The notes: generated from the letters alone by a model not told the origin. A DNA stretch of 64,000 nucleotides from Gemmatimonadota bacterium (GCA_041488455.1 JBGPPG010000003.1:2445-66444), one strand, 5' to 3'; shown: positions 10,805-35,815, counted from the first letter of the stretch. Made by a program: numbers and translations.

Positions 10805-11518
10805 ATGTACGAGCGACTGGAAGAGCTTCTCGGGGTCCGGGGCGTCCACTACGAGCTGATGCCGCATCCGGAAGCCTTCACCGCGCAGGAGGAAGCAGCC
10901 AAGGCCCACGTCTCCGGCTGGTCCTGGGCCAAGACCGTGGTGGTCAAGGACCCGGTCGGCCTCGCGCTGGCCGTGCTGCCGGCCTGCTGCACGGCCGACC
11001 TCGACCGGCTCAAGGGCCTGATCGGCCGCGGCGAGATCCGTCTGGCCAGTGTCGAGGAGATCCTGGCGGGTTTTCCCGGCTGTGCGCTCGGCGCGACCCC
11101 GCCGTTCGGGCGGCTGTTCGGCATCCCCACGGCGGTGGACGAGTCGCTGGTCGAGCAGCGCGACATCGTGCTTCCGGCCGGGGATCACCGGACCGCGATC
11201 CGGATGCGCACGGCGGACTACCTGAGCCTGGCCGAGGCCCGCCCGGGTCATTTCGCATTCCACGAAGCGCACGAGTTCTCGGTACATCCCCATCCGCGCG
11301 GCCGCGCCCCTAGTCGAAGGAGAGAGCAAACATGGCGCACAAACAGGTCCTGTTCCGTTCCGAAGCCCGCGAGCGCATCCTGCGCGGAGTGGCCGCCCTC
11401 GCCGATGCGGTCCGCGTCACGCTGGGGCCAAAGTCCAAGTGCGTCCTCCTGGAGAAGCGCTTCGGCGCCCCGGTGGTCTGCAACGACGGCGTCACGATCG
11501 CCAAGGAGATGGAGCTGA
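10805..11518 (+). CDS. YbaK/EbsC/ProX-like aminoacyl-tRNA deacylase domain protein (3' end uncertain)
   Basis: The first ~155 aa ([19 protein letters not shown]...WAKTVVVKD...GATPPFG...) look like a YbaK-type editing domain. The frame then stays open for about 80 more low-complexity codons and runs 187 nt into groEL. Confidence 0.6.
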
Positions 11519-16027: not shown

Positions 16028-16050
16028 GTCGCTTGCGACGAGCGGAGTCC

Positions 16051-19139: not shown

Positions 19140-20277
19140 GATGCCTGGCGATCGTGCGCTGGCGATCGCGCGGAAGGAGACGCGACAGCTCCTCCGCGAC
19201 CCCACGTACCTGGGCCTCGCGATCGTCGTGCCGCTGCTGCTCATCCTCCTCCTCGGCTATCAGCTCTCGCTGGACGTCAAGGGGCTCCTGGTGGCGGTGG
19301 TGGACCACGACCGCTCCCGGTGGAGCCGGGAGTACATCGACGGGGTCGTCCACTCCGAGTACTTCCGGCTCGTCGGCGTGCTCGACGGCGCGGAGGAAGC
19401 GCGGGAATGGGTCCGCTCGGGCCGGGCCCGCGTGGTCATCGACATTCCGCCCGACTTCGGACGGCGGCTCAGCGCCGGCGAGTCCGCCACCCTGGGCGTG
19501 ACCGTGGATGGCTCGTTCCCGACCCGCGGCCAGATCGGGGCGGCCTACGTGGAGGCGATCAGCGCGCAGTACAACCAGCGGCTCCTGCGCGAGTACCTCG
19601 TCCGCCACGGCGCGGGAGACGACCGGTTGTGGCCCGTCCAGATGGAGCTGGCCGTCTGGTACAACCCCACGCTCGAGAGCAAGAACTTCATCGTGCCCGG
19701 CATGCTGGTCGTGATCCTCATGATATTCCCGCCGCTGCTGAGCGCGCTGCTGATCGTGCGCGAGCGCGAGAGCGGCACCATTCTCAATCTCTACTGCTCG
19801 CCGGCGAGCCGGTGGGACATCCTGGCCGGCAAGGCGTTGCCGTACGTGGCCGTCTCGTTCCTCGACTTCCTGCTGATCTTCGCGGTCAGCATCTGGCTCT
19901 TCCGCGTCCGGTTCGTGGGCGCGGTGTGGATCCTGGCGGTGGGCGCGCTGCTCTACTCGGTCTGCATGGTGGGCCTCGGTCTGCTGATCTCCACGGTGAC
20001 GCGAAGCCAGCTCGCCGCGATGCTCGCCACGTTTCTCGGCGCGGTGGCCCCCGCCTTCACGTTCTCCGGCATCTTCACGCCGGCCGGGAGCCTGGACCCG
20101 GTCGGCCGGTTCGTGAGCCGCCTGATCCCCGCCACGTACTTCATGGATGTCGTCCGCGGCAGCTATCTCAAGGGCGGCGACGTCGCCGCGTACGTGCCGA
20201 GCCTGCTGATCCTCCTGCTCTACGCCGTGGTCATCTCCACCGCGGCCTGGCTCAGCCTCCGGAAACGGCTCGGCTGA
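19132..20277 (+). CDS. ABC-2 type transporter permease (YbhS/YbhR-like)
   Basis: 381 aa, beginning ARKETRQLLRDPTYLGLAIVVPLL, with a large periplasmic loop and then 5 TM segments. It overlaps the ATPase gene by 8 nt. Confidence 0.85.
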   Translation: MPRMPGDRALAIARKETRQLLRDPTYLGLAIVVPLLLILLLGYQLSLDVKGLLVAVVDHDRSRWSREYIDGVVHSEYFRLVGVLDGAEEAREWVRSGRARVVIDIPPDFGRRLSAGESATLGVTVDGSFPTRGQIGAAYVEAISAQYNQRLLREYLVRHGAGDDRLWPVQMELAVWYNPTLESKNFIVPGMLVVILMIFPPLLSALLIVRERESGTILNLYCSPASRWDILAGKALPYVAVSFLDFLLIFAVSIWLFRVRFVGAVWILAVGALLYSVCMVGLGLLISTVTRSQLAAMLATFLGAVAPAFTFSGIFTPAGSLDPVGRFVSRLIPATYFMDVVRGSYLKGGDVAAYVPSLLILLLYAVVISTAAWLSLRKRLG

Positions 20278-21395
20278 TGGGCAGCCGTCTCGCGGCCATG
20301 ATCCGGAAGGAGTGGAGCCAGCTCTTCCGGGACGTGCCCATCCTCCTGTTCGTGATCTGGGCCTTCACGGGCGCCGTCTACACCGGGGGTCACGGCGTGG
20401 GCGCCGAGCTCCGGAACTATCCCATGGCCGTGCTCGATCTCTCCCGCAGCGCGGAGAGCCGCGAGCTGCTGTCCCGATTCCGCGCGCCGTACTTCAAGAT
20501 CGTCGGCCATGTCTCGGGCGACGCCGAGCTGGTGCGCTGGCTCGATGGGGGCCGGGCCAGCCTGGTCCTCGTCATTCCGGCGGATTTCGATCGCCGCGCT
20601 CAGCAGGGCGGCGCGCGGTTCCAGGTGATCTCGGACGGCAGCCAGTCCATGTCAGCGACGATCGCCGGGGCGCACATCGCCGGCATCGCCGGCCGCTACA
20701 GCGTGGAGCTGCTGGAGGCCCGGATGGGCGTGGCCCACGGCCGCCTGCCGCAGGTGGATGCCCGCGTCCGCGTGGAGTACAACCCGAATCTCGTCGAGAC
20801 GTGGTTCTCCGGCCTGCTCGAGGTCTTCAACCAGGTCACCATGATCGCGATGCTGCTGGCCGCCGCCGCCATGGTGCGGGAGCGCGAGCACGGCACGATC
20901 GAGCATCTGCTGGTGAGCCCGCTGCGGTCCTGGGAGCTGTTCACCGCGAAGGTCGTGCCGGTGGTCGTCCTGGTGCCGCTGGCCGCCCTCGGCTCGGTGT
21001 TCGGGATCGTCCACGGGGTGTTCGCCACCCCCATCCGGGGCAGTGTCGCGCTGTTCTACGCGGTGACCGTGATCTACGTCTTCGCCCTGGCGAGCCTGGG
21101 CCTCACCATCGCGGTCCTGGCCCGCAACCTCGGCCAGGCGATGCTGCTCCTCCTCCTGATCCTGTACCCGATGATGCTGCTCTCGGGCGCCTTCACCCCG
21201 CCCGAGAGCATGGGGCCGCTCATGCGGTACGCGAGCCTCGTGTCCCCGGTGCGCCACTACGTCGATTTCGGCTACCAGGTCCTCTTCAAGGGGAACGGTC
21301 TGGCGTATGTCTGGCCGGACGTGGCGGGCATCCTGGCGCTGGGCGTGCTGCTGTTCGCGATCTCCATCCGGCGCTTCGCGCGGCTCGCGCGCTGA
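20277..21395 (+). CDS. ABC-2 type transporter permease (second subunit, YbhR/YbhS-like)
   Basis: It begins MGSRLAAMIRKEWSQLFRDVPILLFVIW... and has the same architecture as the preceding permease. The ATG overlaps the upstream TGA by 1 nt (TGATG). Confidence 0.85.
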   Translation: MGSRLAAMIRKEWSQLFRDVPILLFVIWAFTGAVYTGGHGVGAELRNYPMAVLDLSRSAESRELLSRFRAPYFKIVGHVSGDAELVRWLDGGRASLVLVIPADFDRRAQQGGARFQVISDGSQSMSATIAGAHIAGIAGRYSVELLEARMGVAHGRLPQVDARVRVEYNPNLVETWFSGLLEVFNQVTMIAMLLAAAAMVREREHGTIEHLLVSPLRSWELFTAKVVPVVVLVPLAALGSVFGIVHGVFATPIRGSVALFYAVTVIYVFALASLGLTIAVLARNLGQAMLLLLLILYPMMLLSGAFTPPESMGPLMRYASLVSPVRHYVDFGYQVLFKGNGLAYVWPDVAGILALGVLLFAISIRRFARLAR

Positions 21396-21468
21396 CCGCC
21401 GGTCGGTCGGCGCTCCGCGCCGGTTTGTCTGGGGCCGGCCCACCCCATTTGTGGCGCGCCCGCCCCAA

Positions 21469-21489
21469 GCGTCGCGGGAGCCGCGACGC
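21469..21489 (+). terminator. 9-bp GC hairpin after the ABC-2 operon (weak terminator candidate)
   Basis: The sequence is GCGTCGCGG-gag-CCGCGACGC. No clear U-tract follows. Confidence 0.25.
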
Positions 21490-21517
21490 AAGTTCCTGAA
21501 ATGACGCGCGTTCGGCC

Positions 21518-21533
21518 TGGCATCGAGCTTGTA
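21518..21533 (+). promoter_or_regulatory. sigma-54-like element (TGGCAT-N5-TTGTA), imperfect -12
   Basis: The -24 spacing is correct, but the -12 reads GT instead of GC. The site is 54 nt upstream of the lmo0937-type gene. Confidence 0.3.
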
Positions 21534-21586
21534 ATACGGAGGGGCAGGGAACGGATGCAGTGGCCGGTACTCAAAGGGAGGCTGCC

Positions 21587-21736
21587 ATGCTGTGGACGAT
21601 CGTGGTGATTCTTCTGGTGCTGTGGGCGCTCGGCATGTTGAGTGCGTACACGGCCGGCGGGCTGGTCCATCTCCTGCTGGTGATCGCGATCATCGCCATC
21701 GTGATCCAGTTCGTGAGCGGTCGACGGTCCATCTGA
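21587..21736 (+). CDS. lmo0937-family small membrane protein (49 aa; below the ORF-track cutoff)
   Basis: Read directly from the DNA. An RBS AAGGGAGG precedes the ATG. The product MLWTIVVILLVLWALGMLSAYTAGGLVHLLLVIAIIAIVIQFVSGRRSI matches the MLWTI..VLW..G......GGLIHLLLVIA pattern of this family. Confidence 0.7.
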   Translation: MLWTIVVILLVLWALGMLSAYTAGGLVHLLLVIAIIAIVIQFVSGRRSI

Positions 21737-21816
21737 CCTCGTGACCGCCCAGGCATCATCCCCGGGTCGACCAGTTGATCCTCGCTCATGTCACGCCCGA
21801 CCGGGCGAGGTGTGAC

Positions 21817-22026
21817 ATGGCCACCGACCCAGAGATCCAGACGTTCGTGCAGCGTCGCCACGGCTTCGTCCCGAAGATCGGATGGATCGCGCATGTCAAG
21901 GAGGTTCACGGCATCCCGACGCTCCGCGGGGCGGACCGGGCCCATCGTGATCGTGATGTCGAGCCGTGCCCGTCCGAGAAGCGGGAAGCAATCGAAGAAG
22001 CGCTGCGGCATTTCGGCATGATGTGA
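21817..22026 (+). CDS. small hypothetical protein (69 aa)
   Basis: MATDPEIQTFVQRRHGFVPKIGWIAHVKEVHGIPTLRGADRAHRDRDVEPCPSEKREAIEEALRHFGMM has ordinary composition. No family was named. The antisense 146-aa ORF looks like a shadow ORF. Confidence 0.4.
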   Translation: MATDPEIQTFVQRRHGFVPKIGWIAHVKEVHGIPTLRGADRAHRDRDVEPCPSEKREAIEEALRHFGMM

Positions 22027-22057
22027 CGGCCGCGGGGGACCGCGGCGGGAGGACGGC

Positions 22058-22350
22058 GTGAAGGTCTACTTGATCGCCCCAAGAATCCTGAATCGTTCTG
22101 GACCTTCGACCGCGTGCTGGGTGCGTGTTCCCCAACCTCGCGTTGCCGACGGTCGCGGGGCTGACGCTGCCGCCCCACGAGGTCGTGCTCTGCGACGAGA
22201 ACGTCGAGCCGGTCGACCTCGACACGGACGCCGATGTGGTCGGGATCACCGGGTTCGTGGTCCACAAGCGGCGGATGCTCGAGCTCGCCGAGGCCTTCCG
22301 GCGCCGCGGGAAGCTGGTCGTTCGCGGGCGGCCCCGGGCACAGCGTCGCG
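22058..22350 (+). pseudogene. decayed N-terminal fragment of a B12-binding-domain radical SAM enzyme
   Basis: Similarity hops across three frames: VKVYLIAP / KNPESFWTFDRVLG / FPNLALPTVAGLTLPPHEVVLCDENVEPVDLDTDADVVGITGFVVHKRRMLELAEAFRRRGKLVV / FAGGPGH. The radical-SAM core (CxxxCxxC) and the C-terminus are absent. Confidence 0.55.
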
Positions 22351-22547
22351 AAGGCGCCGGCCGGCGCCAGGGCGGCCGGCTCCTGTCGTAAGGGGGCTCC
22401 CTGCCTGCGCTCGGCCCACCAGCACGGGCCAAGCCGTCGGGAGCGGGGCGGCGCGTCTGGGGCGCGCACGCCGCGGCGTAGCGGTCCTGTCCCACTCGTG
22501 GCACGCGCTCCGCCCGCCAACATCTCGAATCCTCTGCGATATCAGCT

Positions 22548-22563
22548 TGGCACCTCGCTTGCT
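22548..22563 (+). promoter_or_regulatory. sigma-54 (-24/-12) promoter candidate, TGGCAC-N5-TTGCT
   Basis: TGGCACctcgcTTGCT has the same core as the site at 3466 and is also preceded by T. It lies 77 nt upstream of the BON gene ATG, which has its own GGAAGGAG RBS. Confidence 0.55.
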
Positions 22564-22639
22564 TTGGACGTCTTCAAGCGGGGGATACGGGCCCGAGTGA
22601 TGCACCACCCTGATCGAAATAGGGAAGGAGATTCTGGCC

Positions 22640-22951
22640 ATGCGAGGAATGAGAGGGTTTGGGATCCTGGTTCTAGCCGTCGTGTTGGTGTCGGCCTGGG
22701 GGTGCGGGTCGACGGCGACGAAAGAGGGGACCGGCGAGTACGTCGACGATTCCGTGATCACCGCGAAGGTGAAGTCGGCCATCTTCAACGACGCCAACCT
22801 GAAGGTCAACGAGATCAACGTCGAGACGTTCAAGGGCGTGGTGCAGCTGAGCGGCTTCGTGCGGTCTCAGGCGGATATCGACCAGGCGATGAAGGTCGCG
22901 CGCGGGGTGGCCGGCGTGAAGTCCGTCAAGAACGATATGCGGATCAAGTGA
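22640..22951 (+). CDS. BON-domain lipoprotein (OsmY-like)
   Basis: The signal peptide has a lipobox (VSAWGC). The BON domain reads DDSVITAKVKSAIFNDANLKVNEINVETFKGVVQLSGFV. Confidence 0.85.
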   Translation: MRGMRGFGILVLAVVLVSAWGCGSTATKEGTGEYVDDSVITAKVKSAIFNDANLKVNEINVETFKGVVQLSGFVRSQADIDQAMKVARGVAGVKSVKNDMRIK

Positions 22952-22961
22952 CGGGAGGCGT

Positions 22962-23255
22962 GTGATGCGAAGCAGCCGGGTCTTTCTGCTGGGAGCGATC
23001 GTGGGAGGAGCCGCCGTGTGGCTGTGGGGCCGGGAGGCGGAGGCGTACGTGGAGGAGAAGACGCGCGGGGTGCGCACGACGGTCGCGGAGGGAGTCCGGG
23101 CGGTCGAGGAAACCGCCGGGCAGGTGCTCGACCGCGGCGGCGAGGCCCTGCGGCGAGCCGAGGACTTCCTGGAGGACACGAAGACACACATGAGCGAAGC
23201 GCTCCAGGCCGGGCAGGAGGCGATTCGCCCGGCGCCCGCGACGAGGGAACCATGA
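22962..23255 (+). CDS. YtxH-like general-stress protein (N-terminal TM plus helical region)
   Basis: FLLGAIVGGAAVWLW is followed by an Ala/Glu-rich amphipathic helix, the typical YtxH arrangement. Confidence 0.6.
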   Translation: MMRSSRVFLLGAIVGGAAVWLWGREAEAYVEEKTRGVRTTVAEGVRAVEETAGQVLDRGGEALRRAEDFLEDTKTHMSEALQAGQEAIRPAPATREP

Positions 23256-23479
23256 AGCCCATGACGCTCGTCGGTGTCGCCCTGATCATTCTCGGCGTGC
23301 TGGCCCTGGCCTACCAGGGCATCACGTACACGACGCGGGAGAAGGTCATCGACCTGGGGCCGCTCCAGGCCTCGGTCGACAAGAAGAAGAGCATTCCGCT
23401 GCTCCCGATCGTCGGCGCGCTCGCGCTTGCCGGGGGTGTGGTGATGGTCTTCATCGGATCTCGAAAGTCCTCGGCGTGA
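23252..23479 (+). CDS. small two-TM membrane protein (75 aa)
   Basis: MKPMTLVGVALIILGVLALAYQG...IPLLPIVGALALAGGVVMVFIG. Its ATG overlaps the upstream stop as ATGA. Confidence 0.55.
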   Translation: MKPMTLVGVALIILGVLALAYQGITYTTREKVIDLGPLQASVDKKKSIPLLPIVGALALAGGVVMVFIGSRKSSA

Positions 23480-23501
23480 CCGTCCCGAGAGAGGAGCGGA
23501 C

Positions 23502-23690
23502 ATGAGCCTGATCGGACTCGTCCTCACGCTGGTGATCGTCGGCGTCGTGCTGTGGCTGATCAACAACTACGTGCCGATGGATCCAAAGATCAAGACGATC
23601 GTCAACGTCGTGGTCGTCGTCGCGGTGGTGATCTGGCTCTTGCAGGTGTTCGGGATCCTCGGCTCCGTGCGAGACATACGAATCCGGTAG
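23502..23690 (+). CDS. Thivi_2564-family small membrane protein (62 aa)
   Basis: [51 protein letters not shown] fits the VLWLIN.YIPM...IK pattern of this family. Confidence 0.6.
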
Positions 23691-23710
23691 CGCTCCGTGT
23701 TGCCCACGTC

Positions 23711-24262
23711 GTGTTGATCCAGGAGCTGAGCAGCCAGGCGAGCCTGGACCTGCTGGCCCGCACGCGGCTCGGCCGGCTGGCGTGCAGTCAGGGGGGCCAG
23801 CCCTACGTGGTGCCCGTCTATTTCGCGTACGCGGATCGGTCGCTGTACGGCTTTGCCACGCTCGGGAAGAAGATCGAGTGGATGCGCGCCAACCCCTTGG
23901 TCTGTATCGAGGTGGACGAGGTGGTGAGCCCCCAGCAGTGGGCGAGCGTCATCGTCTTCGGTCGCTACGAGGAGCTGCCCGACACGCCGGAATGGCGGAG
24001 CGCGCGCGCATTCGCCCACAAGCTGCTGAAGCAGAGCGGCATGTGGTGGGAGCCCGCCTACGTGAAGACCGTGCTGGGCGGCGTGGCGCGCCCGCTCGTG
24101 CCGGTCTTCTACCGGATCCACGTCGTTCAGACCACCGGACACCGAGCCACCCCGGAGGGGGCGCCGCCGACGGAACGCCGGTCCACGATCGCCTCGGGCG
24201 AGGCCGGGTGGCTGGAGAGGCTGCTGCGGCAGGTCCGGGGCGAGCGGCGGGGCCGGCGGTGA
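23711..24262 (+). CDS. pyridoxamine 5'-phosphate oxidase (PNPOx)-like FMN-binding split-barrel protein
   Basis: [56 protein letters not shown]...[13 protein letters not shown]. The start is estimated at GTG 23711 inside track ORF 23552-24262. Confidence 0.7.
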
Positions 24263-26037
24263 GCGGCTGGGAGCCGATCCGGAAGTCGGCGGGGGATGGA
24301 TCTGTCGCCCCGAATCTCGCGGACTACGCGCGGGGCCGTGCCGAGTTCTCGTGGCAAGGCGCGCGCGCGGCCCTCGACGGGCTGCCAGACGGGCGAGGGC
24401 TGAACATTGCCCATGAGGCGGTCGACCGTCACGTGGCTCACGGCCACGGCGAGCACGTGGCGCTGCGGTGGCTCGGCAAGCGCGGCGAGGCCGTCGACTA
24501 TACTTATGGCAGCCTCGCCGAGCTGACGAGCCGCTTCGCCAATGTCCTGCGCTCGCTCGGCGTGGGCCCGGGCGAGCGGGTCTACGCCCTGGCCGGACGC
24601 ATTCCCGAGCTCTACGTCGCCGCGCTCGGCACGCTCAAGAGCCGCGGCGTGTTCTGCCCGATGTTCTCCGCGTTCGGCCCCGAGCCGATTCGCGTCCGGA
24701 TGACGACCGGCCAGGCGCGCGTGCTCGTCACCACGGAGTCACTCTACCGGCGCAAGATCGCCGGGATCCGGGACGCGCTCCCGGATCTCCGGCACGTGCT
24801 GCTGGTCGGGGACGGCCGTAGACCCACGAGTATTCCGGGAACCGAGGACTACGCCACCCTCATGGCCCGCGCCAGCGGGCGCTTCGACATCGAGCCCACG
24901 GACCCGCAGGAGATAGCGCTGCTCCATTTCACCAGCGGCACCACCGGCCGGCCCAAGGGCGCGATGCACGTGCACGAGGCCGTCGTGGCCCACCACATCA
25001 CGGGGCAGCTCGCACTCGATTTCCATGCGGACGACGTCTTCTGGTGCACCGCGGATCCGGGCTGGGTCACGGGGACCTCCTACGGGATCATCGCGCCGCT
25101 GACCTGCGGGATCACCAGTATCGTGGACGAGGCCGAGTTCGACGCCGCGCGCTGGTACGGCATCCTGCAGGACCAGCGCGTGACGGTCTGGTACACCGCG
25201 CCGACCGCGATCCGCATGCTGATGAAGACCGGCGGCGAGCTTGCGCGCAAGCACGATCTCCGGGCGCTGCGGTTCCTCGCCAGCGTGGGAGAGCCGCTCA
25301 ACCCGGAGGCGGTCGTCTGGGGACAGGAAGCCTTCGGCCGGCCGTTCCACGACAACTGGTGGCAGACCGAAACGGGCGGGATCATGATCGCCAACTTCTC
25401 GGCCATGGATATCCGCCCCGGCTCCATGGGCCGCCCGCTGCCCGGGGTGGAGGCCGCCATCGTCCGGAAGCTTGGCGATGACCGCGTGGAAGCCATCGAG
25501 GAGCCCGACGTGCAGGGCGAGCTGGCGCTCCGCCCCGGATGGCCCTCCATGTTCCGCGGGTACTGGCAAGAGCCCGAGCGCTACCGCAAGTGCTTCGCGG
25601 GCGGCTTCTACCTCACGGGGGATCTCGCTCGGCGGGATCGCGACGGCTACTTCTGGTTTGTCGGGCGGGCCGACGACGTGATCAAGAGCTCCGGCCACCT
25701 CATCGGCCCGTTCGAGGTGGAGAGCGTCCTGATGGAGCACAAGGCGGTGGCCGAGGCCGGTGTCATCGGCAAGCCGGACCCGGTGGCGATGGAGGTGGTC
25801 AAGGCCTTCGTTTCGCTCAAGGACGGCTACGAGCCGACCGAGGAGCTCCGTCGCGACCTGCTGGCCTTCGCGCGCTCCCGTCTCGGGGCGGTGGTCGCGC
25901 CCAAGGAGATCGCCTTCGAGGCGAGCCTGCCCAAGACGCGGAGCGGCAAGATCATGCGGCGCCTGCTCAAGGCCCGTGAGCTGGGGCTGCCCGAGGGAGA
26001 CACCTCGACGCTCGAGGGTGCGGAGGCCGAGCGATGA
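24259..26037 (+). CDS. AMP-forming acyl-/acetyl-CoA synthetase (AcsA-like)
   Basis: It has the AMP-binding motif [12 protein letters not shown], the YWQTETGG-type core ([10 protein letters not shown]), and a C-terminal [14 protein letters not shown] 24259 overlaps the upstream stop as GTGA. Confidence 0.85.
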
Positions 26038-27005
26038 CCGACATCGATCGAGCGCACGCTCTCGCCCTGCTCCGCCAGATGCTGCTCATCCGGCGGTTCG
26101 AGGAGAAGGCCGCCGAGCTCTACAGCGTGGGCAAGATCCGCGGCTTCCTGCACCTCTACATCGGCGAGGAGGCCGTGGCGGTGGGGACCATGCAGGCGCT
26201 CACCCCGGAGGACGGGATCGTGGCGACCTACCGCGAGCACGGTCAGGCCCTGGCCCGCGGGCTCCCGGCCGGCTCGCTCATGGCCGAGATGTACGGCAAG
26301 GCCAACGGCTGCAGCCGCGGGCGCGGCGGCTCCATGCACTTCTTCGACGTCTCGCGCCGCTTCTACGGCGGCCACGCCATCGTCGGAGGCGGCCTGCCCG
26401 TCGCGGTGGGGCTCGCGCTCGCCGACAAGCTGCGTGCCCGGGCGCGGGTGACCGCGTGCTTCTTTGGCGACGGAGCGGTGGCCGAGGGCGAGTTCCACGA
26501 GTCGCTCAATCTGGCCGCACTGTGGAAGCTCCCGGTCCTCTTTCTCTGCGAGAACAACCTCTACGCGATGGGCACCGCGCTGGCCCGCCATCAGTCTCAG
26601 CCCGACATCCGGCGGAAGGCCGACGCCTACGGCATGGCGTCGGACTCCGCCGACGGCATGGACGTCCTGGCGGTGGAGGAGGCCACGCGGCGGGCCGCCG
26701 ACCGCGTGCGGCGCGGCGAGGGCCCCCTCCTCCTGGAGCTGCGCACGTATCGCTTCCGCGCCCACTCCACCGCCGATCCGGAGCTGTACCGGACGAAGGA
26801 GGAGGTCGCGGAGTGGAAGCGGCGCGATCCCATCGGGCTGTTCACCGCGCGGCTGCAGGCGGCGGGCCTCCTGAGTGCCGCCGATCTGGCCTCCCTGGAA
26901 GCTTCGGTCGCCGCGGAGATCGCCGAGGCCGTGGGCCTCGCCGAGGCCGGCCCCTGGGAACCAGTGGAGGACCTGACCCGAGACGTCTACACGAGGACGC
27001 CATGA
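26034..27005 (+). CDS. 2-oxoacid (pyruvate/acetoin-type) dehydrogenase E1 component, alpha subunit (TPP-binding)
   Basis: [19 protein letters not shown] and the [38 protein letters not shown] motif. Confidence 0.9.
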
Positions 27006-27985
27006 GCAAGATGAGCTACCGGGACGCGATCCGCTCCGCGCTGCGCGAGGCGCTCCGCGACGACCCGCGCGTGTTCCTGATGGGGGAAGACGTCGGCGGA
27101 TACGGTGGCGCCTTCAAGGTCAGTCACGGGCTGCTCGAGGAGTTCGGCCCCGAGCGGGTCCGGGACACGCCCCTGTCGGAGAACACGTTCCTCGGCGCCG
27201 GCATCGGCGCCGCGCTCGGCGGCATGCGCCCGATCGTGGAGATCATGACCGTCAACTTCAGCCTGCTGGCGCTGGACCAGATCGTGAACAACGCGGCCAC
27301 GCTCCGGCACATGTCGGGGGGCCAGCTCAGCGTGCCGCTCGTGGTGCGCATGACCACCGGGGGTGGCCGCCAGCTCGCGGCCCAGCACTCGCACAGCCTG
27401 GAGGGCTGGTTCGCGCACATCCCGGGGATCAAGATCGTGGTGCCCGCGGTGGCCGCCGACGCCCGCGGATTGTTCCTGGCCGCGCTCCGGGATCCGGATC
27501 CGGTGTTCATCTTCGAGCACGCGACCCTGTATCCGGTGGAGGGGGAGGTCGATGAGCAGGCCGGACCCGCCGAGATCGGCCGGGCCCTGGTGCGGCGCGC
27601 GGGAGACGCGGTGAGCGTCATCACGTACGGCGGCACCCTCGGCAAGGCGCTGCAGGCCGCCGACGAGCTCGCGGTGGACGGCATCCAGGCCGAGGTCATC
27701 GACCTGCGCTCGCTGCGGCCGCTGGACACCGAGACCATTCTCGCCTCGGTGGCCAGGACGCATCGCGCGGTGATCGTGGACGAGGGCTGGCGCACGTGCA
27801 GCTTCGCCGCCGAGGTGAGCGCCCGGATCATGGAGGGCGGCTTCTACAGCCTGGACGCGCCCGTCGCGCGCGTGTGCAGCGCCGAGGTGCCGATGCCGTA
27901 CGCCAAGCACATGGAGGACGCGGCGCTGCCGCAGGTGCCGGCCATCGTGGGCGCGGTCCGGGCGATGCTGGGCAGCCATGGCTGA
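27002..27985 (+). CDS. 2-oxoacid dehydrogenase E1 component, beta subunit
   Basis: [57 protein letters not shown]. The start overlaps the upstream stop as ATGA. Confidence 0.9.
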
Positions 27986-29144
27986 GTTCCTGATGCCGAT
28001 CCTGACCGCGGACATGAGCGCCGGCACGCTCGTCGAGTGGCGCAAGAAGCCCGGAGACGCGCTCGAGCGTGGCGACATCATCGCCCTCGTCGAGACCGAC
28101 AAGGGCCTGATCGACATCGAGGTCTTCACGCCCGGCGTGCTCGAGAAGATCGTCGTGCAGCCGGGCGCCACGGTGCCCACCGGCGCGGTGCTGGCCATCA
28201 TCCGTGACGAGGCGCCGACTGGAGCGCCTCCGGCGCCCGCCGCGGCGCCGCCGCTGGCCCCGTCTCCGGTCGCCCCGGCCCTGCCGCCTGTCGCGCCCGC
28301 CCCCCCCGGCCGGCTCAAGGTCTCGCCGCTGGCGCGGAAGCTCGCCGCCGAGCTCGGCGTCGATCCGGCCACGGTGCGGGGGACCGGGGTCGGTGGCGCG
28401 ATCAGGCGCGAGGATATCGAGCAGGCGGCGGCCCGGGCCGCGGCTCCCGCCCAGAAGCCCCGCGCGGCGCTCGACCGGCAGGCGCGGTTGCGGCAGGCGA
28501 TCGGGGCCGCCATGGCCCGCTCCAAGCGCGAGATCCCCCACTACTACCTCGCCACCACCATCGACATGCACCGGGCGATGACCTGGCTCGCGGAGGAGAA
28601 TCTCAAGCGGCCGGTGACCGACCGGGTCCTCTACGGAGCCCTGCTCATCAAGGCGGTGGCGCTCGCGCTCAAGGAGGTCCCGGAGCTGAACTCGGTGTGG
28701 CGGGGGAGCGAGCCGGTCCGGAGCGAGGCCGTTCACGTCGGGGTGGCCATCTCGCTGCGCGGAGGAGGACTCGTCGCGCCGGCGCTCCACGACACGGCCA
28801 CCCAGAGCCTCGGCGATCTCATGCGACGCTTCCGCGACCTGGTGCAGCGCGCGCGGACCGGCGGGCTCCGGAGCTCGGAGCTGTCCGATCCGACGATCAC
28901 CCTCACCAGCCTCGGCGAGCAGGGCGTGGAGAGCGTCTTCGGCGTCATCTTCCCGCCGCAGGTCGCCATCGTGGGCTTCGGCAAGATCGTCGAGCGGCCG
29001 TGGGTGATGCCGGGCGGGCAGCTCGTGGCCCGGCCCGTCGTCACCGCCACGCTCTCGGCCGACCATCGCGTGAGCGACGGCCACCGCGGCGGCCTCTTCC
29101 TGGCCGCGGTGGACCGGCTGCTGCAGGAGCCGCAGCGGCTATGA
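27978..29144 (+). CDS. dihydrolipoamide acyltransferase (E2): lipoyl domain, E3/E1-binding domain and catalytic domain
   Basis: The lipoyl-lysine motif is VETDKG, the subunit-binding domain is [14 protein letters not shown], and the catalytic motif is [11 protein letters not shown]. Confidence 0.9.
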
Positions 29145-29389
29145 CCCGCGACGAGATCCGCGCCATCGTCCTGCGCACGCTCGGCGAGATCGCGCCCGAG
29201 GCGGATCTGTCCACGCTCGCGCCCGACGTGTCCTTCCGGGATCAGCTCGACGTGGATTCGATGGACCTGCTGAACTTCGTCATCGCCCTGCACGCCGTCC
29301 TCCACGTCGACATCCCGGAGGCGGACTATCCGAAGCTGGCCACCCTGGATGGCTGCTTGGACTACCTGACGGGAGTGGGTGTCCGATGA
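29141..29389 (+). CDS. stand-alone acyl carrier protein (phosphopantetheine-attachment DSMD motif)
   Basis: 82 aa, with [15 protein letters not shown] in the position of the ACP DSL/DSM Ser motif. ATGA overlaps occur on both sides. Confidence 0.75.
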
Positions 29390-31215
29390 GCGAGCAGCAG
29401 GACGTCGGTACGCTCGCGCGGATGTTCTGGCGCCGGGTCGAGCAGAGCGGCGACCGGCCGGCCCAGATGGTGAAGCGGGGCGGCCGCTGGGAGACGCTCG
29501 ACTGGAGCCGGGTCGGCACGCAGGTGCGGGAGCTGACGTTCGGGCTCCTGGCGCTGGGCCTCCGGGCGGGTGAGTCGGTGGCCATCCTGTCCCGGAGTCG
29601 CGCCGAGTGGGTGCAGACCGACTTCGCGGTCTTCTCGGTCGGCGGCGTTAGCGTCCCCATCTATCCCAGCTACACGGCCGAGCAGGTCGCCTACATCGTC
29701 GACGACTCGGAGGCGCGAGTGCTGATCGTCGAGGATGGCGCTGAGCTCGCCAAGGCGCTGGAGATGCGAGCGCGGATGACCGGACTTGGCCGCATCGTCG
29801 TGATCGAGGGCCACGAGGGCCCGGACCCGACCATCCTCGGCTGGGACGCCCTGCGGCGACTCGGTCGCGACCATGCCGCCACGTTCGGCGCGGAGCTGGC
29901 CGCGCGGGTCACGGGTGCCGGCCCCAAACAGGTCGCGACCATCGTGTACACCTCGGGGACGACGGGACCGCCCAAGGGCGTCGTGCAGACCCACGAGAAC
30001 CACCTCGCCATGCTGGCGTCGGTGACGCAGGTGGCGCCCGCCCGGCCCGGCGACGTCCACGTGCTCTTCCTGCCGCTGGCCCATTCGTTCGGGCGCCTCG
30101 AGGCCTTCATGGGCGTCTACCTGGGTCTCACCACCGCGTTCGCCGAGTCGCTCGACAAGCTCGGCGACGATATCCGGGAGGTGCGTCCCCATTTCCTCGT
30201 GGCGGTGCCCCGCGTCTTCGAGAAGGTCCACGCCCGGATCGTCGCGGACGTCGAGCGGGGCTCACCGCTCCGGCGCGGTCTCTTCGCCTGGGCCATGCGG
30301 GTCGGCCACGAAGTCGCGGGGCGGCGGAGCGCGGGCCGGCCGGTGCCGGCCCTCCTCGCGCTCCACCACCGGCTGGCCCACCGGCTGGTCTTCGGCCGGT
30401 TGCAGGCGGCTCTCGGGGGCCGGCTCCGTTTCGCCGTGTCGGGTGGCGCGGCGTTGCCATCCGAGATCGCGGCGTTCTTTCACGCCGCCGGCATCCTCAT
30501 CCTCGAAGGATACGGGTTGACTGAGAGCTGCCCGGTGCTCACGTTCAATCGGCCGGATCGCTTCAGGTTCGGCTCGGTCGGCCACCCGGTGCCCGGGGTG
30601 GAGATCCGGCTGGCTCCCGACGCGGAGATCCTCGCCCGCGGGCCGAACATCGCCCAGTGCGGCTACTGGAAGCGGCCCGGGGAGTCCGCCGAGACCTTCG
30701 GCGCCGACGGCTGGCTCCATACCGGTGACATCGGCCGCGTCGATGAGGACGGCTTTGTCTTCATCACCGATCGGAAGAAGGACCTCATCGTCACGTCGGG
30801 CGGGATCAACATCGCTCCCCAGGCCATCGAGAGCCTCCTGCGCAGCGATCCGTTCGTCGGCCAGGCCCTGGTGTATGGCGATGGCCGGCCCTATCCGGTC
30901 GCTCTCGTGACGGTGAACGCCGAGGCGGCGGCCGAGCTCGCCCGGAGTCTCGGGATCCTGTGGACCGACCATGCGCGTCTATCGCGGCATCCCGAGATAC
31001 TCGCCCGGGTCGAGCGGATCATCGCAGAGAAGAACGCGCACCTGCAGTCGTACGCCCGGATCAAGCGCTTCGCGGTGCTGCCCGCCGAGCTCACCGAGGA
31101 GGCGGGGGAAGTCACGCCCACTCAGAAGCTGAAGCGGAAGCAGGTCGCCGAGAAGTACGCGGACGTGCTCGAGTCGCTCTACGATTCCGGGCGTCGACCG
31201 GCGCGGGGTTACTAG
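29386..31215 (+). CDS. long-chain fatty-acid-CoA/AMP ligase (FadD15/FACL-like adenylate-forming enzyme)
   Basis: 609 aa, with YTSGTTGPPKGV, LEGYGLTES and TGDIGRVDEDGFVFITDRKKDLI. Confidence 0.85.
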   Translation: MSEQQDVGTLARMFWRRVEQSGDRPAQMVKRGGRWETLDWSRVGTQVRELTFGLLALGLRAGESVAILSRSRAEWVQTDFAVFSVGGVSVPIYPSYTAEQVAYIVDDSEARVLIVEDGAELAKALEMRARMTGLGRIVVIEGHEGPDPTILGWDALRRLGRDHAATFGAELAARVTGAGPKQVATIVYTSGTTGPPKGVVQTHENHLAMLASVTQVAPARPGDVHVLFLPLAHSFGRLEAFMGVYLGLTTAFAESLDKLGDDIREVRPHFLVAVPRVFEKVHARIVADVERGSPLRRGLFAWAMRVGHEVAGRRSAGRPVPALLALHHRLAHRLVFGRLQAALGGRLRFAVSGGAALPSEIAAFFHAAGILILEGYGLTESCPVLTFNRPDRFRFGSVGHPVPGVEIRLAPDAEILARGPNIAQCGYWKRPGESAETFGADGWLHTGDIGRVDEDGFVFITDRKKDLIVTSGGINIAPQAIESLLRSDPFVGQALVYGDGRPYPVALVTVNAEAAAELARSLGILWTDHARLSRHPEILARVERIIAEKNAHLQSYARIKRFAVLPAELTEEAGEVTPTQKLKRKQVAEKYADVLESLYDSGRRPARGY

Positions 31216-31273
31216 TCGGACAAGGGGAATGCACGCGAGCAGAACGCCTCGGATCGCGGAGAGGCAGGAGGCG

Positions 31274-31726
31274 ATGGACATGGCAAGGATCCGGACGGTG
31301 ATGGTAGCATCCGATTTCTCCTCGGCCTCACGGGCTGCGTTCGTGAGCGCGGTGGAGCTGGCGAAGGCGAATCGGGCGAGACTCCTTGTGATGCACGCGT
31401 TGACGCTCGTTCCCCCGATGCTGGGAGGCGAGTACATGCCTCCGCAGGCCTGGGAGCGGATCGAGACCGCCACCCGCGCCGAGGCGCGGAAGCAGATCCA
31501 GGCGCTGGTGGCGAAGGCCAAGCGGGCCGGCATCCGCGCCACTGCTCTGCTCATGGTCGGAAGCCCGTACGAGGTCATCGTCCGGGCCGCCCGGTCGAAG
31601 CGGGTCGACGTGCTCGTGGTGGGGACGCACGGACGCACCGGGCTGCCGCGCTTCTTCCTGGGGAGTGTGGCGGCCCGCGTGCTGGCGACGGCGCACTGTC
31701 CGGTGCTCACGGTCCGGGGGCGGTAG
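31274..31726 (+). CDS. universal stress protein (UspA family)
   Basis: VMVASDFSSASRAAF...LLVMHA...VDVLVVGTHGRTGLPRFFLGSVAARVL. The start is estimated at ATG 31274. Confidence 0.8.
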   Translation: MDMARIRTVMVASDFSSASRAAFVSAVELAKANRARLLVMHALTLVPPMLGGEYMPPQAWERIETATRAEARKQIQALVAKAKRAGIRATALLMVGSPYEVIVRAARSKRVDVLVVGTHGRTGLPRFFLGSVAARVLATAHCPVLTVRGR

Positions 31727-31735
31727 AGCCCGTCG

Positions 31736-32389
31736 GTGCGCCTCGTGACGCTGGGGGTGGGCGCGCAGAATTCCCCTCGGCACCGCCCGGCCGGACTCCT
31801 CGTCGCCTCGGGCGGGGCCCGGGTCATGATCGATGGAGGGCCGGGGGCCGTCCCCCGGGGCCGACTCGACGCATGGCTGGTCACCGACGAGCGGGCCGAG
31901 CTCATCGGAGCGATCAGGAAGCTGGCGCGTGCGAAAGGCCTGCGCCCGTATGCGGGGACCTTTCGGCACGACGGCCTGTGTGTCGAACGCCGCGGCGTCG
32001 TGCATACCAATCACCCGACCTACGCGTACCGGATTCGGGCCGTGGGCAAGACCGTCGTCTGGGCTCCGGAGTTCTACCGCTTCCCGCGGTGGGCCCGTCG
32101 CGCGGACGTCGTGTTCGCGGAAGGGGCCGCCTGGGACCACCCGATCCGGTTCGTGGGCGGGGTCGGCGGACACATGGACGTGCTCGCCACCGCGAAGCAA
32201 GCCAGACGACTCGGAGTGAAGCGGCTGGTGTTCGCGCACCTCGGCCGGCCCACCCTCCGGGCGCTTTCACGGGGGAAGGAGCCCCCGTTCGGAGAGCTGG
32301 CGGATGACGGGCAGACGTTCCGGGTGGTGCGGCGGCACCGGCGCCCGCGACCCGCCAAGGCTCCCGGGGATGGAAGGAGGTCACGATGA
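31736..32389 (+). CDS. MBL-fold protein with degenerate metal-binding motif
   Basis: The overall pattern VMIDGGPG...LVTDERAE...VVHTNHP...FAHLG follows the metallo-beta-lactamase fold. The HxHxDH position, however, reads TDERAE. Confidence 0.5.
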   Translation: MRLVTLGVGAQNSPRHRPAGLLVASGGARVMIDGGPGAVPRGRLDAWLVTDERAELIGAIRKLARAKGLRPYAGTFRHDGLCVERRGVVHTNHPTYAYRIRAVGKTVVWAPEFYRFPRWARRADVVFAEGAAWDHPIRFVGGVGGHMDVLATAKQARRLGVKRLVFAHLGRPTLRALSRGKEPPFGELADDGQTFRVVRRHRRPRPAKAPGDGRRSR

Positions 32390-33831
32390 CGAAGGAGCAC
32401 GGGGTACGCGGGAGCCGTCGTCCGACGAAGGCGCGGGGGGCGTTCGTATCGGGCCCACTCCTGACCCGCGATGCGGCGCTCTTCACCGATCTGTACGAGC
32501 TCACGATGGCCGCCTCATATCTGCGCGAGGGAATGCGCGGTCCGGCGACCTTCAGCGTGTTCGTCCGACAGCTCCCGCGCGGGCGCTCCTTCCTCGTCGC
32601 AGCCGGCCTCGAGGACGTCCTGAACTTCCTGAGAGACTTCCGCTTCTCGGAAGACGCCCTCTCATACCTCGACTCGCTCGACCTCTTCGAGCCTCCCTTC
32701 CTGGAGCTCCTTCGCGGGCTGCGCTTCACCGGCCTGGTCCGGGCCGTGCCGGAAGGCACTGTGGTATTCGAGAACGAGCCGCTGCTGGAGATCACCGCGC
32801 CGATCATCGAGGCGCAGCTCGTCGAGACCGCCGTCCTCAACCTGGTCCATTTCCAGACGCTCCTCGCGAGCAAGGCGGTGCGGTGTGTCCTCGCGGCGCG
32901 CGGGCGCCCGGTCACGGAGTTCGGCCTGCGCCGCACGCATGGGGTCGACGCCGGGATGAAGGCGGCCCGCTGCGCGTTCATCGCGGGCCCTTCGAGGAGC
33001 AGCAACGTGATGGCCGGTCTCCACTACGGCATCCCGCCGGCCGGGACCATGGCGCACTCGTATGTCTCGGCATTTCCCCGCGAGATCGACGCCTTCCGGG
33101 CCTTCGCGCGCGCATTCCCCGCGCACACCGTCCTGCTCCTCGACACCTATGACGCGCTCGCCGCCGCGCGGAAGGCGGTCCTGGTTGCGAAGGAGATGGA
33201 GGCGAAGGGCCAGCGCCTGGCCGGCGTGCGGCTGGACAGCGGGGACCTCGTCGGCCTCAGCCAGCAAGTCCGCCGGATCCTCGACGAGGCGGTTCTCGCG
33301 TACGTGAAGATCGTCGTGAGCGGCGGCCTGGGCGAGGCGAGCATCGGCGGGTGTCTGGCCAGGGGTGCGCCGATCGACGCCTTCGGCGTGGGCACGCGCA
33401 TGGACGTCTCCGCCGACCTACCGTACCTCGACATGGCGTACAAGCTGGTGGAATACGATGGCCGGCCGGTGCTGAAGAGCAGTGCCGGCAAGGGGACGCG
33501 GGCCGCCCAGAAACAGGTGTACCGGCGACTTCGGAGTGGCGAAGGATTCGCGGGAGACGTGCTCGCGCTACGCGAGGAGCCGGCCCCGCCGGGCACGGTG
33601 GAGATCCTGCTGCGCTCGGTGATGGAGCGCGGCCGGCTCCTTGCCCCTCACCCGACGCTGATGATGGTCCGGGACTGGTGCGCGGCCCAGGTTGCCTCCC
33701 TGCCGGAGGATCTCCGGGATCTACGCGAGCTCGCGGCCTATCCGGTGAGCTACAGCGAGCGCCTCGTCTCGCTCCAGCGCGCGCTGGAGGTACAGGTCGA
33801 GGCGGCCCGTGATGATCCGCGGCGAGTGTAG
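32386..33831 (+). CDS. pncB: nicotinate phosphoribosyltransferase
   Basis: LFTDLYELTMAASYL, GTMAHSYV and RLDSGDL are motifs of NAPRTase. The start overlaps the upstream stop as ATGA. Confidence 0.85.
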   Translation: MTKEHGVRGSRRPTKARGAFVSGPLLTRDAALFTDLYELTMAASYLREGMRGPATFSVFVRQLPRGRSFLVAAGLEDVLNFLRDFRFSEDALSYLDSLDLFEPPFLELLRGLRFTGLVRAVPEGTVVFENEPLLEITAPIIEAQLVETAVLNLVHFQTLLASKAVRCVLAARGRPVTEFGLRRTHGVDAGMKAARCAFIAGPSRSSNVMAGLHYGIPPAGTMAHSYVSAFPREIDAFRAFARAFPAHTVLLLDTYDALAAARKAVLVAKEMEAKGQRLAGVRLDSGDLVGLSQQVRRILDEAVLAYVKIVVSGGLGEASIGGCLARGAPIDAFGVGTRMDVSADLPYLDMAYKLVEYDGRPVLKSSAGKGTRAAQKQVYRRLRSGEGFAGDVLALREEPAPPGTVEILLRSVMERGRLLAPHPTLMMVRDWCAAQVASLPEDLRDLRELAAYPVSYSERLVSLQRALEVQVEAARDDPRRV

Positions 33832-33948
33832 GGCGTGCCTCACGTGTGGCGCATGTGCCCCATTCCCGCACGAGCGAGCGCCGCCGGCTTGGCCCAGACA
33901 ATTCCCGCGGAGCGCGGAGTTGCTACGCATCACTGAGCCAAGGCGAGC

Positions 33949-33964
33949 TGGCACGGGCGATGCT
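33949..33964 (+). promoter_or_regulatory. sigma-54-like promoter (TGGCACG-N4-ATGCT)
   Basis: There is one mismatch to TGGCACG-N4-TTGCW. The site is 75 nt upstream of the truncated nucleotidyltransferase ATG, which has a GGAGGA RBS. Confidence 0.4.
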
Positions 33965-34039
33965 CTTACCGTGGCCGGGTACGGAGCTTCCCGACCGCCA
34001 ATCGCGCACGCGATGCCGACAGCGGCAGGAGGACGCGGG

Positions 34040-34227
34040 ATGAGCAGTCAGTTGTGGGCTGTCGTGCTCGGGGCGAGGGGATGAGGTGAGGTCCCTGGCC
34101 CAGCGAATCTGTGGCGACGACCGGCCGAAGCAGTACGTCCCGGTCCTCGGAGACCGCACCCTGCTCCGTCAGACCCTCGACCGCGTCGCGCTCGGGCTCA
34201 CGCCGATCGGCAACATCAAGGGCTAAG
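34040..34227 (+). pseudogene. frameshifted, 3'-truncated fragment of a sugar-phosphate nucleotidyltransferase (mannose-1-P guanylyltransferase-like)
   Basis: MSSQLWAVVLGARG stops at a TGA. A shifted frame continues VRSLAQRICGDDRPKQYVPVLGDRTLLRQTLDRVALGL and ends after ~60 aa. Full-length homologues are >300 aa. Confidence 0.55.
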
Positions 34228-34395
34228 AGCATGAACGAGGCGCCGGCCCCCCAGCCGGGAGTGCGCCGCCCCAGAGCGGCTCTCGGCGGATGACTCCAAC
34301 GTCCCGGTTTTCCTCACTGCGATGTCCGAGACCGGCTCGGGTGATCCTCGCAACTGCGGTCACGAAGTTGCTTCTTGTACAGAAAGGAGGGCGTG

Positions 34396-35808
<1,413 letters not shown>

Positions 35809-35815
35809 AGCGGCG

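Follow-up and report, generated by a model that had tools for sequence, protein, structure and literature searches.

A stress-island cassette that couples pyruvate dehydrogenase-type E1 and E2 genes to an acyl carrier protein and an acetate ligase across about ten bacterial phyla

Introduction

In the quinocarcin system, QncN/L/M, as in SclQ1-4 of the scleric acid system, an E2-like protein delivers a two-carbon unit to a dedicated acyl carrier protein (ACP) (PMC6335953). In both, the unit is a glycolyl group that comes from a ketose phosphate and feeds a non-ribosomal peptide synthetase (NRPS) in a biosynthetic cluster. Here, we describe a gene set of related make-up in a 64,000-nucleotide stretch of DNA from a Gemmatimonadota bacterium (GCA_041488455.1 JBGPPG010000003.1:2445-66444), which we refer to as the window. 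Between positions 23,711 and 31,215 it holds seven overlapping genes, which include those for the E1 alpha, E1 beta and E2 subunits of a pyruvate dehydrogenase (PDH)-like complex, a stand-alone ACP and an AMP-forming acetate ligase of the AcsA type (Acs). The original prediction for this locus, made from the DNA alone, had pointed to a quinocarcin-type transfer from E1/E2 to an ACP, and QncN/L/M provides that precedent (PMC6335953). We find that the conserved unit is made up of five genes, Acs–E1 alpha–E1 beta–E2–ACP, rather than seven, and that the window copy is one instance of a widespread, probably horizontally mobile module inside a stress/low-oxygen island.

This cassette shares traits with several described systems. 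Compared by description only, it is like QncN/L/M and SclQ1-4 in combining genes for a thiamine diphosphate (ThDP)-dependent E1-type part, a lipoyl E2 and a dedicated ACP, and unlike them in that it has a PDH-type E1, includes an acetate–CoA (coenzyme A) ligase, is associated with no assembly line and occurs in hundreds of species in about ten phyla. It resembles PdhA-PdhB-PdhC of Alphaproteobacteria and mitochondria in having E1 proteins that score above PDH cutoffs and an E2 with a lipoyl domain, a peripheral subunit-binding domain (PSBD) and the catalytic His and Ser; it differs in that its E2 falls below the corresponding cutoffs, an ACP is coupled to it, an acetate ligase precedes it, no E3 (dihydrolipoamide dehydrogenase) gene accompanies it in 81 loci, and its location is on plasmids and within stress islands, not among central-metabolism genes. 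With AcoABC(L) it has in common an E1 alpha/beta and E2 operon that is separate from the housekeeping PDH, together with sigma-54-type promoter-like sites (present in the window as well as before Nitrospira copies), promoters of this type being classical for aco operons; however, its E2 does not reach the AcoC model, there is no AcoL/E3, and it carries an ACP and an Acs, which aco operons lack.

The islands in which the cassette resides are, in turn, similar to the lxa locus of B. cenocepacia and to the mycobacterial DosR regulon in their wealth of genes for Usp, Hsp20, BON, CBS and nicotinate phosphoribosyltransferase (NAPRTase), as well as for a PfkB-type kinase, a P-type ATPase and a Lon-like protease. 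The lxa locus, which uses AckA/Pta and polyhydroxyalkanoate (PHA) genes, was considered as a carrier of the cassette, but in the main text of its description we found neither a pyruvate dehydrogenase, an acetyl-CoA synthetase nor an acyl carrier protein named (PMC3721108). The cassette is not involved in the published work on nanoxia in A. capsulatum or on PhaR in B. diazoefficiens, full-text literature searches found no description of it, and public annotation names its five genes separately. The cassette would function in the manner of a PDH; its obligatory ACP and Acs form no part of any 2-oxoacid dehydrogenase system as defined so far.

Results

The order, coordinates and reading frames predicted for the seven genes of the window are all borne out in the sequence, as are the junctions between them: start and stop codons overlap as GTGA at 24259 and as ATGA at 26034, 27002, 29141 and 29386, with an 8-nt overlap at 27978 (Table 1). 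Furthermore, an independent gene call on a JGI metagenome contig (L001), which is 99.1% identical to the window over positions 18590-35812, returned the same seven genes. The predicted motifs were likewise found, namely the lipoyl lysine of E2 (ETDK, Lys42), its catalytic histidine (SADHRVSDG, His363) and the ACP serine (DVDSMD, Ser40).

To place the locus among its relatives, we scanned one genome per species with an alignment of the ACP, which matched at least 595 species, and analysed the best 80 loci. The adjacency of E2 and ACP, on which the original prediction had hung its own survival, proved to be strongly conserved: E2 lies directly upstream of ACP in 73 of the 74 loci with room for the pair, and the complete Acs–E1 alpha–E1 beta–E2–ACP order is present in 54 of 57. 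In 65 of 76 loci, the stop codon of E2 and the start codon of ACP overlap by 4 nt, which makes this the tightest of all the junctions (overlaps being found in 17/60 loci between Acs and E1 alpha, 32/65 between E1 alpha and E1 beta, and 30/69 between E1 beta and E2). The five genes are thus inseparable, and E2 and ACP are the most tightly coupled pair. As the arrangement recurs in hundreds of genomes, it is far beyond chance. No other enzyme is conserved alongside the ACP among the gene families that recur around these loci, and the view of all seven genes as one conserved unit gives way to a unit of five.

The exceptions are few. They comprise a truncated ACP remnant (L048), a locus in which E1 beta was undetected (L051) and a case at a contig end (L017), while two loci from long-read bins in which the E1 genes are frameshifted (L010 and L015) were still counted as complete. 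In L048, from a Nitrospiraceae bin, positions 9869-10066 encode ACP residues 12-77 with 76% identity and no Acs, E1 or E2 lies upstream, so that this looks like what is left of a disrupted cassette. The sole rearranged locus, in a metagenome-assembled genome of the Alphaproteobacteria (L068), has the order E1 alpha–E1 beta–Acs–E2–ACP, in which Acs, E2 and ACP are still contiguous. Since its E1 genes are much less similar (53% and 46%) than are Acs (69%), E2 (55%) and ACP (62%), it seems that the E1 pair was replaced en bloc.

The hosts of the best 80 loci belong to about ten phyla. They include Methylomirabilota, Acidobacteriota, Nitrospirota (with Ca. Nitrospira defluvii represented by a complete genome), Planctomycetota, Actinomycetota (Thermoleophilia, Gaiella) and Gemmatimonadota, as well as Myxococcota, Binatia, Chloroflexota and Alphaproteobacteria; plasmids or chromids carry the cassette in cultured members of Rhodococcus, Sinorhizobium, Burkholderia and Cupriavidus, too. 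Across the loci, Acs and E1 are 70-80% identical to their counterparts in the window, E2 is 55-75% and ACP 55-85% identical. These values are high for hosts so distant from one another, which suggests horizontal spread. A protein collection holds 1801 homologues of the ACP, of which the named ones come from Rokubacteria/Methylomirabilota, probably also the phylum of the window.

How far does the association with ACP reach within the E2 family? A search of 1.84 billion representatives clustered at 50% identity returned 4514 proteins at E ≤1e-30 (a separate E2 homologue search yielded only relatives at ≥76% identity). Over the top 150 relatives the scores fall smoothly from 515 to 298 bits, with no gap among them that would mark a cassette clade, the boundary with canonical E2 proteins lying beyond the range covered. 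When we looked at the genomic context of four relatives, at 52, 46, 44 and 42% identity and between ranks 13 and 148, all four were in a cassette. Their ACPs, which mostly show the same 4-nt overlap with E2, are 31-39% identical to that of the window (three were scored; the fourth, a 34-residue fragment at a contig end, is alike by eye), and all those that reach the motif keep the pattern IAP[ED]...DS[MVF]D. The link to ACP thus characterises a large subfamily of E2 proteins and is no recent accident.

In their sequences, the enzymes of the cassette resemble those that handle acetyl groups. Both E1 subunits lie above the curated cutoffs of PDH families. The nearest solved relative of Acs is a 572-aa acetyl-CoA synthetase (PDB 9g79), and, over 55 cassette copies, the equivalents of S. 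enterica Acs residues W414 (55/55) and K609 (55/55) are invariant, as are, or nearly so, those of R194 (54/55), R584 (55/55) and R526. We take W414 to close the acetate pocket, K609 to be the A10 catalytic/acetylated lysine, and R194 and R584 to hold the nucleotide part of CoA. E2 has its best PDB matches in mitochondrial PDH E2 and conserves, over 64 to 66 copies, the lipoyl Lys42 (64/64), the catalytic His363 (66/66), Ser311 (62/66) and the PSBD motifs; nevertheless, it falls below every E2 equivalog cutoff, whether for E2p, E2o or AcoC (222.5 bits vs 445 for TIGR01349, and 64.8 vs 307 for the AcoC model NF011457). Because the E1 is of the PDH type, Acs retains the tryptophan of the acetate pocket and the features of E2 are intact, the unit handled is most likely a plain acetyl (C2) group, and not the unusual acyl or hydroxyacyl unit derived from a 2-oxoacid that had been proposed.

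The original prediction also turned on whether the small open reading frame encodes a protein with an ACP fold. An AlphaFold 2 model of it (pLDDT 93.6) is a four-helix bundle in which Ser40 stands at the N-terminus of helix II (H40-54), and a Foldseek search with this model placed type II ACPs, E. coli AcpP among them, at the top (TM 0.77-0.85), in agreement with an ACP. By sequence profile, the nearest solved proteins are mitochondrial ACPs. The D39-S40-M41-D42 motif is invariant across 20 homologues. On the other hand, the protein is below every NCBIfam AcpP equivalog cutoff (at best 40.5 bits vs 70), and its helix II is without the acidic residues of fatty acid synthase (FAS) ACPs, differing from DSLDTVELVMALEEEF. 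Judged by its Pfam gathering score, its DSx serine and the modelled bundle, it is a carrier protein, but on these sequence measures it is not a housekeeping AcpP of the FAS.

The locus was predicted to be without an E3 gene, and this stands. Across the window and 81 related loci, neither tblastn with E. coli Lpd nor a search for the redox-disulfide motif found an E3, a negative that is meaningful since the Lpd query matches PDB 4jdr (1050 bits). Pfam scans, which covered about 40 genes of the 64-kb window, likewise revealed no E3, phosphopantetheinyl transferase (PPTase) or lipoate-synthesis genes, and the cassette has no conserved LipA, LipB or LYR-like partner, nor was one found in the window or the loci. 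Operons for 2-oxoacid dehydrogenases are commonly without a linked E3, which is often encoded elsewhere. The PSBD that E2 retains fits a normal complex with E3 supplied in trans, although it is no proof that E3 is used, because the PSBD of E1 alpha/beta-type complexes binds E1 too.

An OsmC-family gene adjoins the cassette in ten loci (L004, L007, L010, L011, L015, L021, L045, L056, L061 and L077), following ACP closely in some and closely preceding Acs in others. Peroxidases of the OsmC/Ohr type take their electrons from dihydrolipoyl groups. Given this use and the adjacency, the lipoyl arm of E2 could feed peroxide detoxification without an E3 in these lineages.

The two remaining genes of the window are narrowly distributed. 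Among the 80 genome loci, the gene for the PNPOx-like flavoprotein occurs only in the near-identical contig L001, and it is absent upstream of Acs in the close relatives L085 and L089. The suggestion that this protein stands in for E3 therefore lacks comparative support, and we rejected the PNPOx as an E3 surrogate, the gene not being conserved with the cassette. Of the two flanking adenylate-forming ligases in the original prediction, Acs does belong to the cassette, while the second, a 609-aa protein with family-level matches to FadD11 (390 bits vs a cutoff of 950) and to a carboxylic acid reductase (CAR) adenylation domain (185 bits), is linked to ACP only in close relatives. In a metagenome scan centred on this ligase, which gave 25 loci, ACP was seen beside it in 10, all at ≥ ~68% identity, and the orthologues at 60-63% identity (L091-L095) are located away from the cassette; outside L001, the other 79 genome loci hold only distant matches, at 24-26%. 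With PNPOx limited to the window and L001, and the link of the second ligase to close relatives, the seven-gene set is a lineage-specific elaboration within a narrow Methylomirabilota lineage. Adenylate-forming ligases have been added to the cassette in a further lineage as well: on a plasmid of Cupriavidus sp. USMAHM13 (L111), positions 1-3865 encode two more AMP-binding proteins, one of 939 aa, directly upstream of acsA.

Turning to the surroundings of the cassette, the families that recur around it are Usp (29/80 loci), Hsp20, CBS, OsmC, GroEL, phosphoribosyltransferase, dienelactone hydrolase and NAPRTase. The first 34 kb of the window (70% GC) form an island of the same type, with P-type ATPase, baeRF, LonB-like protease, RtcA, GroEL, CBS, HlyD/ABC, BON, Usp, NAPRTase and S-adenosylhomocysteine hydrolase (AdoHcyase) genes. 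In cultured bacteria, the cassette of S. fredii CCBAU 45436 plasmid pSF45436d (AB395_RS32325-32345) has BON, FtsH, Usp, NAPRTase and Hsp20 as neighbours, with Usp and NAPRTase flanking it, and that of B. savannae lies near Hsp20 and hyp genes. On pDK1 of Rhodococcus sp. DK17 (L112; record 232383-237534 and flanks; cassette genes PST05_RS41510-41530), the neighbours are a PfkB-family kinase, GNAT, Usp and otsB, and a GAF sensor kinase/response regulator pair with a Usp gene lies 4 kb from the cassette, a layout that is reminiscent of the DosS/DosR dormancy locus. Directly upstream of acsA in this strain, no DosR box was found, the matches being not above chance. Neither the roughly 40 Pfam-scanned genes of the window nor the recurrent flanking families include NRPS, polyketide synthase (PKS), tailoring or lipid-assembly genes; the predicted priming of an unusual lipid or metabolite thus finds no partner enzymes nearby, and what surrounds the cassette is a stress/low-oxygen island instead.

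Promoter-like sequences were found before some of the cassettes. In 13 Nitrospira-type loci and in the Acidobacteria locus L075 (the full set being L026, L029, L031, L033, L034, L036, L038, L043, L044, L046, L049, L053, L054 and L075), a conserved sigma-54-like motif, TGG-N8-TTGCA, flanked by GATGGTCTATGCCTTGCAGAAC, precedes Acs by 45-230 nt; it is absent from the same position in the loci of other phyla. The window has six matches to TGG-N8-TTGCW, against 1.7 expected, of which the site at 22548 is at or near the full consensus. A sigma-70 and terminator scan of positions 21-35 kb gave nothing useful. The BON gene that follows the 22548 site is the first of several small stress/membrane genes (22640-23690) on the same strand ahead of the operon. 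The genes that run from BON to NAPRTase (22640-33831) share one direction, leave only tiny gaps between them and possibly form one long operon; the 22548 site is, by its sequence, a possible start of this array.

Table 1. Positions of features in the window, with the evidence for each
Feature	Position	Strand	Evidence and remarks
P-type ATPase	810-3455		Pfam
baeRF release-factor-like protein	3754-5034		Pfam
LonB-like protease	6782-8338		Pfam
RtcA	8361-9416	minus	Pfam
Archaeal-type S-adenosylmethionine (AdoMet) synthetase	9446-10672		PF01941
GroEL	11332-12957		Pfam
CBS	12964-13620		Pfam
HlyD/ABC-2 transporter genes	15943-20277		Pfam
Sigma-54-type promoter-like site TGGCAC-N5-TTGCT	22548..22563	+	77 nt upstream of BON gene; at or near full consensus
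BON-domain protein	22640..22951	+	Pfam PF04972, 74.5 bits; gene calls on L001
PNPOx-like split-barrel flavoprotein (Pyridox_ox_2)	23711..24262	+	64 bits; outside the conserved cassette
AMP-forming acetate ligase, AcsA type, 592 aa	24259..26037	+	Cassette gene 1; NF003313, 918.3 bits vs cutoff 729
E1 alpha, ThDP-binding, PDH type	26034..27005	+	Cassette gene 2; PF00676, 287 bits; TIGR03182, 452.8 vs 393.85
E1 beta	27002..27985	+	Cassette gene 3; Transket_pyr and Transketolase_C; NF006667, 412.8 vs 321
E2 dihydrolipoyl acyltransferase	27978..29144	+	Cassette gene 4; PF00364 (Biotin_lipoyl), PF02817 (E3_binding), PF00198 (2-oxoacid_dh)
Stand-alone ACP, 82 aa	29141..29389	+	Cassette gene 5; PF00550 (PP-binding), 29.2 bits vs 20.8
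FadD11/ACSL-like adenylate-forming ligase, 609 aa	29386..31215	+	AMP-binding and AMP-binding_C_3; overlaps ACP stop
Usp, metallo-beta-lactamase-fold protein, NAPRTase	31229..33831	+	Profile searches; co-directional stress-island genes downstream

Genes of the methyl cycle are scattered round the island: beside the AdoMet synthetase at 9446-10672, there is an AdoHcyase at 34375-35808 and a methylenetetrahydrofolate reductase (MTHFR) at 35816-36670. The window and contig L001 (from 17242 onward) part exactly after the AdoHcyase stop, at window position 35812, and the GC content of the window drops from about 0.70 to about 0.65 at around 34 kb. Either a rearrangement separates the two strains here, or the assembly contains a chimeric join at a conserved gene.

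Discussion

What might the five genes do together? Our preferred reading, which we hold tentatively, is that the cassette is a stress-island module for acetyl thioesters, in which E2 would hand an acetyl group to its own ACP and E3 would act in trans. Going by family membership, E1 would decarboxylate pyruvate and reductively acetylate the lipoyl arm of E2, whose catalytic domain may then place the acetyl group on a phosphopantetheine thiol, with the co-translated holo-ACP as a physiological acceptor, replacing CoA or serving alongside it. The acetate-specific Acs would act on the same pool of C2 thioester. The dihydrolipoyl arm would presumably be re-oxidised by an E3 whose gene lies at another place in the genome, and the ACP made holo by a PPTase that is likewise encoded elsewhere. 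As E2 and Acs normally use the thiol of CoA, and the ACP, as the sole conserved extra, carries the same thiol, the most economical role for the ACP is that of acetyl acceptor or carrier, most directly for E2. From its context, the module may be expressed with the Usp, Hsp20, BON and NAPRTase genes under oxygen limitation or dormancy-like stress; with the lxa paper silent on the cassette and no DosR box found before the Rhodococcus copy, it is the neighbouring genes that suggest regulation by oxygen.

In favour of this reading are the near-constant company of the five genes, the tightness of the E2/ACP junction, the contiguity of Acs, E2 and ACP in the rearranged L068, the persistence of the link down to 42% E2 identity, the confident carrier-protein fold, the enzyme features that point to a C2 unit, the lack of any other conserved enzyme beside the ACP, the stress-island setting and the precedent of QncN/L/M (PMC6335953). 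Co-variation between the proteins adds soft support. In mirror-tree partial correlations, computed on 46 complete loci, E1 alpha and E1 beta, which are known partners and serve as the positive control, reach 0.69. The ACP correlates with the catalytic domain of E2 at 0.36 [0.16-0.47], compared with 0.13 for ACP and Acs and -0.16 for ACP and E1 beta, while Acs and the catalytic domain of E2, whose genes are not adjacent, reach 0.51 [0.35-0.65].

Several points weigh against a transfer of acetyl from E2 to ACP. The mirror-tree signal is soft, because the genes are neighbours that share a history of transfer. With the presumed CoA-nucleotide-binding arginines R194 and R584 conserved, Acs still looks CoA-dependent, and E2 appears, from its sequence, to show no obvious departure from a canonical CoA-using E2p (the residues of the CoA pocket being outside the comparison). 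The CoA site of canonical E2 cores faces the interior of the cage, which an ACP of 9 kDa would have to enter. The partners of this ACP cannot be deduced from known ACP interactions, given its sub-cutoff AcpP scores and its non-acidic helix II. Finally, we came across neither biochemical nor expression data on a member of the cassette.

A rival reading takes the cassette for an ordinary CoA-dependent module, in which the PDH-type E1/E2 and Acs make acetyl-CoA under stress, Acs also consuming it, and the ACP is a separate carrier that feeds, for example, fatty-acid or storage-lipid synthesis. We regard this as doubtful. It would account for the scores of Acs, E1 alpha and E1 beta, all above the curated equivalog or subfamily cutoffs of the standard enzymes, for the conserved arginines of Acs, for the full canonical domain set in E2 and for the labels of plain acsA, pdhA and the like that PGAP gives to the copies in cultured strains. 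However, it leaves unexplained why the ACP should overlap E2 by 4 nt in 65 of 76 loci and why the association should persist down to 42% E2 identity; moreover, the cassette has no conserved companion among FAS or lipid enzymes, and helix II of the ACP is unlike that of FAS ACPs.

A different source for the acyl group is conceivable, as adenylate-forming enzymes are the classical loaders of carrier proteins: Acs might act everywhere as an acetate:ACP ligase, and the FadD11-like protein as an acyl-ACP synthetase in the lineage of the window. Acs is invariably part of the cassette and co-varies with the catalytic domain of E2, and in the window lineage the second ligase, which resembles a CAR adenylation domain (185 bits), overlaps the ACP stop. 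Yet Acs keeps its CoA-binding arginines and scores 918 bits against an acetate–CoA ligase model, its partial correlation with ACP is low (0.13), and the ACP never adjoins it except via E2; the second ligase, for its part, is absent from the 79 genome loci outside L001 and is cassette-linked in metagenomes only in close relatives. Loading by a ligase in place of E2 is thus an unlikely account.

An improbable role for the ACP is that of a stoichiometric structural or regulatory subunit, or of an octanoyl donor for lipoylation of the cassette E2, in place of that of an acetyl acceptor. There are parallels in the mitochondrial ACP of complex I and the Fe-S machinery and in AcpM bound to MmpL5 and Emb proteins. 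In line with these, the best PDB sequence matches of the ACP are mitochondrial ACPs, many of its structural matches in the PDB are ACPs bound as accessory subunits, and the tight translational coupling suggests 1:1 production with E2. Against this, the invariant serine and DSMD motif indicate a functional phosphopantetheine arm, octanoyl groups normally come from the housekeeping ACP, and no LipA, LipB or LYR-like partner is conserved or was found in the window or loci.

Something of a long shot, though one with consequences of its own, is that the cassette serves as a self-contained device for substrate-level phosphorylation that uses its own protein-bound pantetheine and not the CoA pool, in which the PDH would make acetyl-S-ACP from pyruvate, and Acs, running in reverse with AMP and PPi, would turn it into acetate, ATP and holo-ACP. 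Such a device would explain why the five genes travel without any other partner, why Acs co-varies with the catalytic domain of E2 and why the cassette is sited in dormancy islands. If it were real, energy-starved, oxygen-limited cells would gain ATP from pyruvate without touching acetyl-CoA homeostasis.

By contrast, a QncN/L/M-like loader that places a C2 (glycolyl or hydroxyethyl) unit on the ACP for an assembly line is very improbable: the same types of gene (ThDP E1, lipoyl-E2 and ACP) do lie together here, as in the precedent (PMC6335953), but the E1 has the scores of a bona fide PDH E1 alpha/beta, the acetate ligase is always present, the neighbours are stress proteins, and no NRPS, PKS or tailoring genes occur among the approximately 40 scanned window genes or the recurrent flanking families, so that a secondary-metabolite cluster was rejected on gene context.

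2-Oxoacid dehydrogenases are textbook CoA-dependent machines, and a phylum-spanning subfamily that is hard-wired to an ACP and an acetate ligase would be a new architecture for a very well-studied enzyme system, one whose breadth is evident from at least 595 species genomes and many E2 clusters at 50% identity. Its carriers include soil bacteria (Methylomirabilota, Acidobacteriota, Nitrospira, Planctomycetes, Rhodococcus, rhizobia and Burkholderia), and the islands that house it are apparently for survival under low oxygen or in dormancy. The cassette may therefore supply a part of the metabolism of persistence, in soils and biofilms, that has so far been missing. Since it is also found on plasmids of cultured, genetically tractable strains, it is directly testable.

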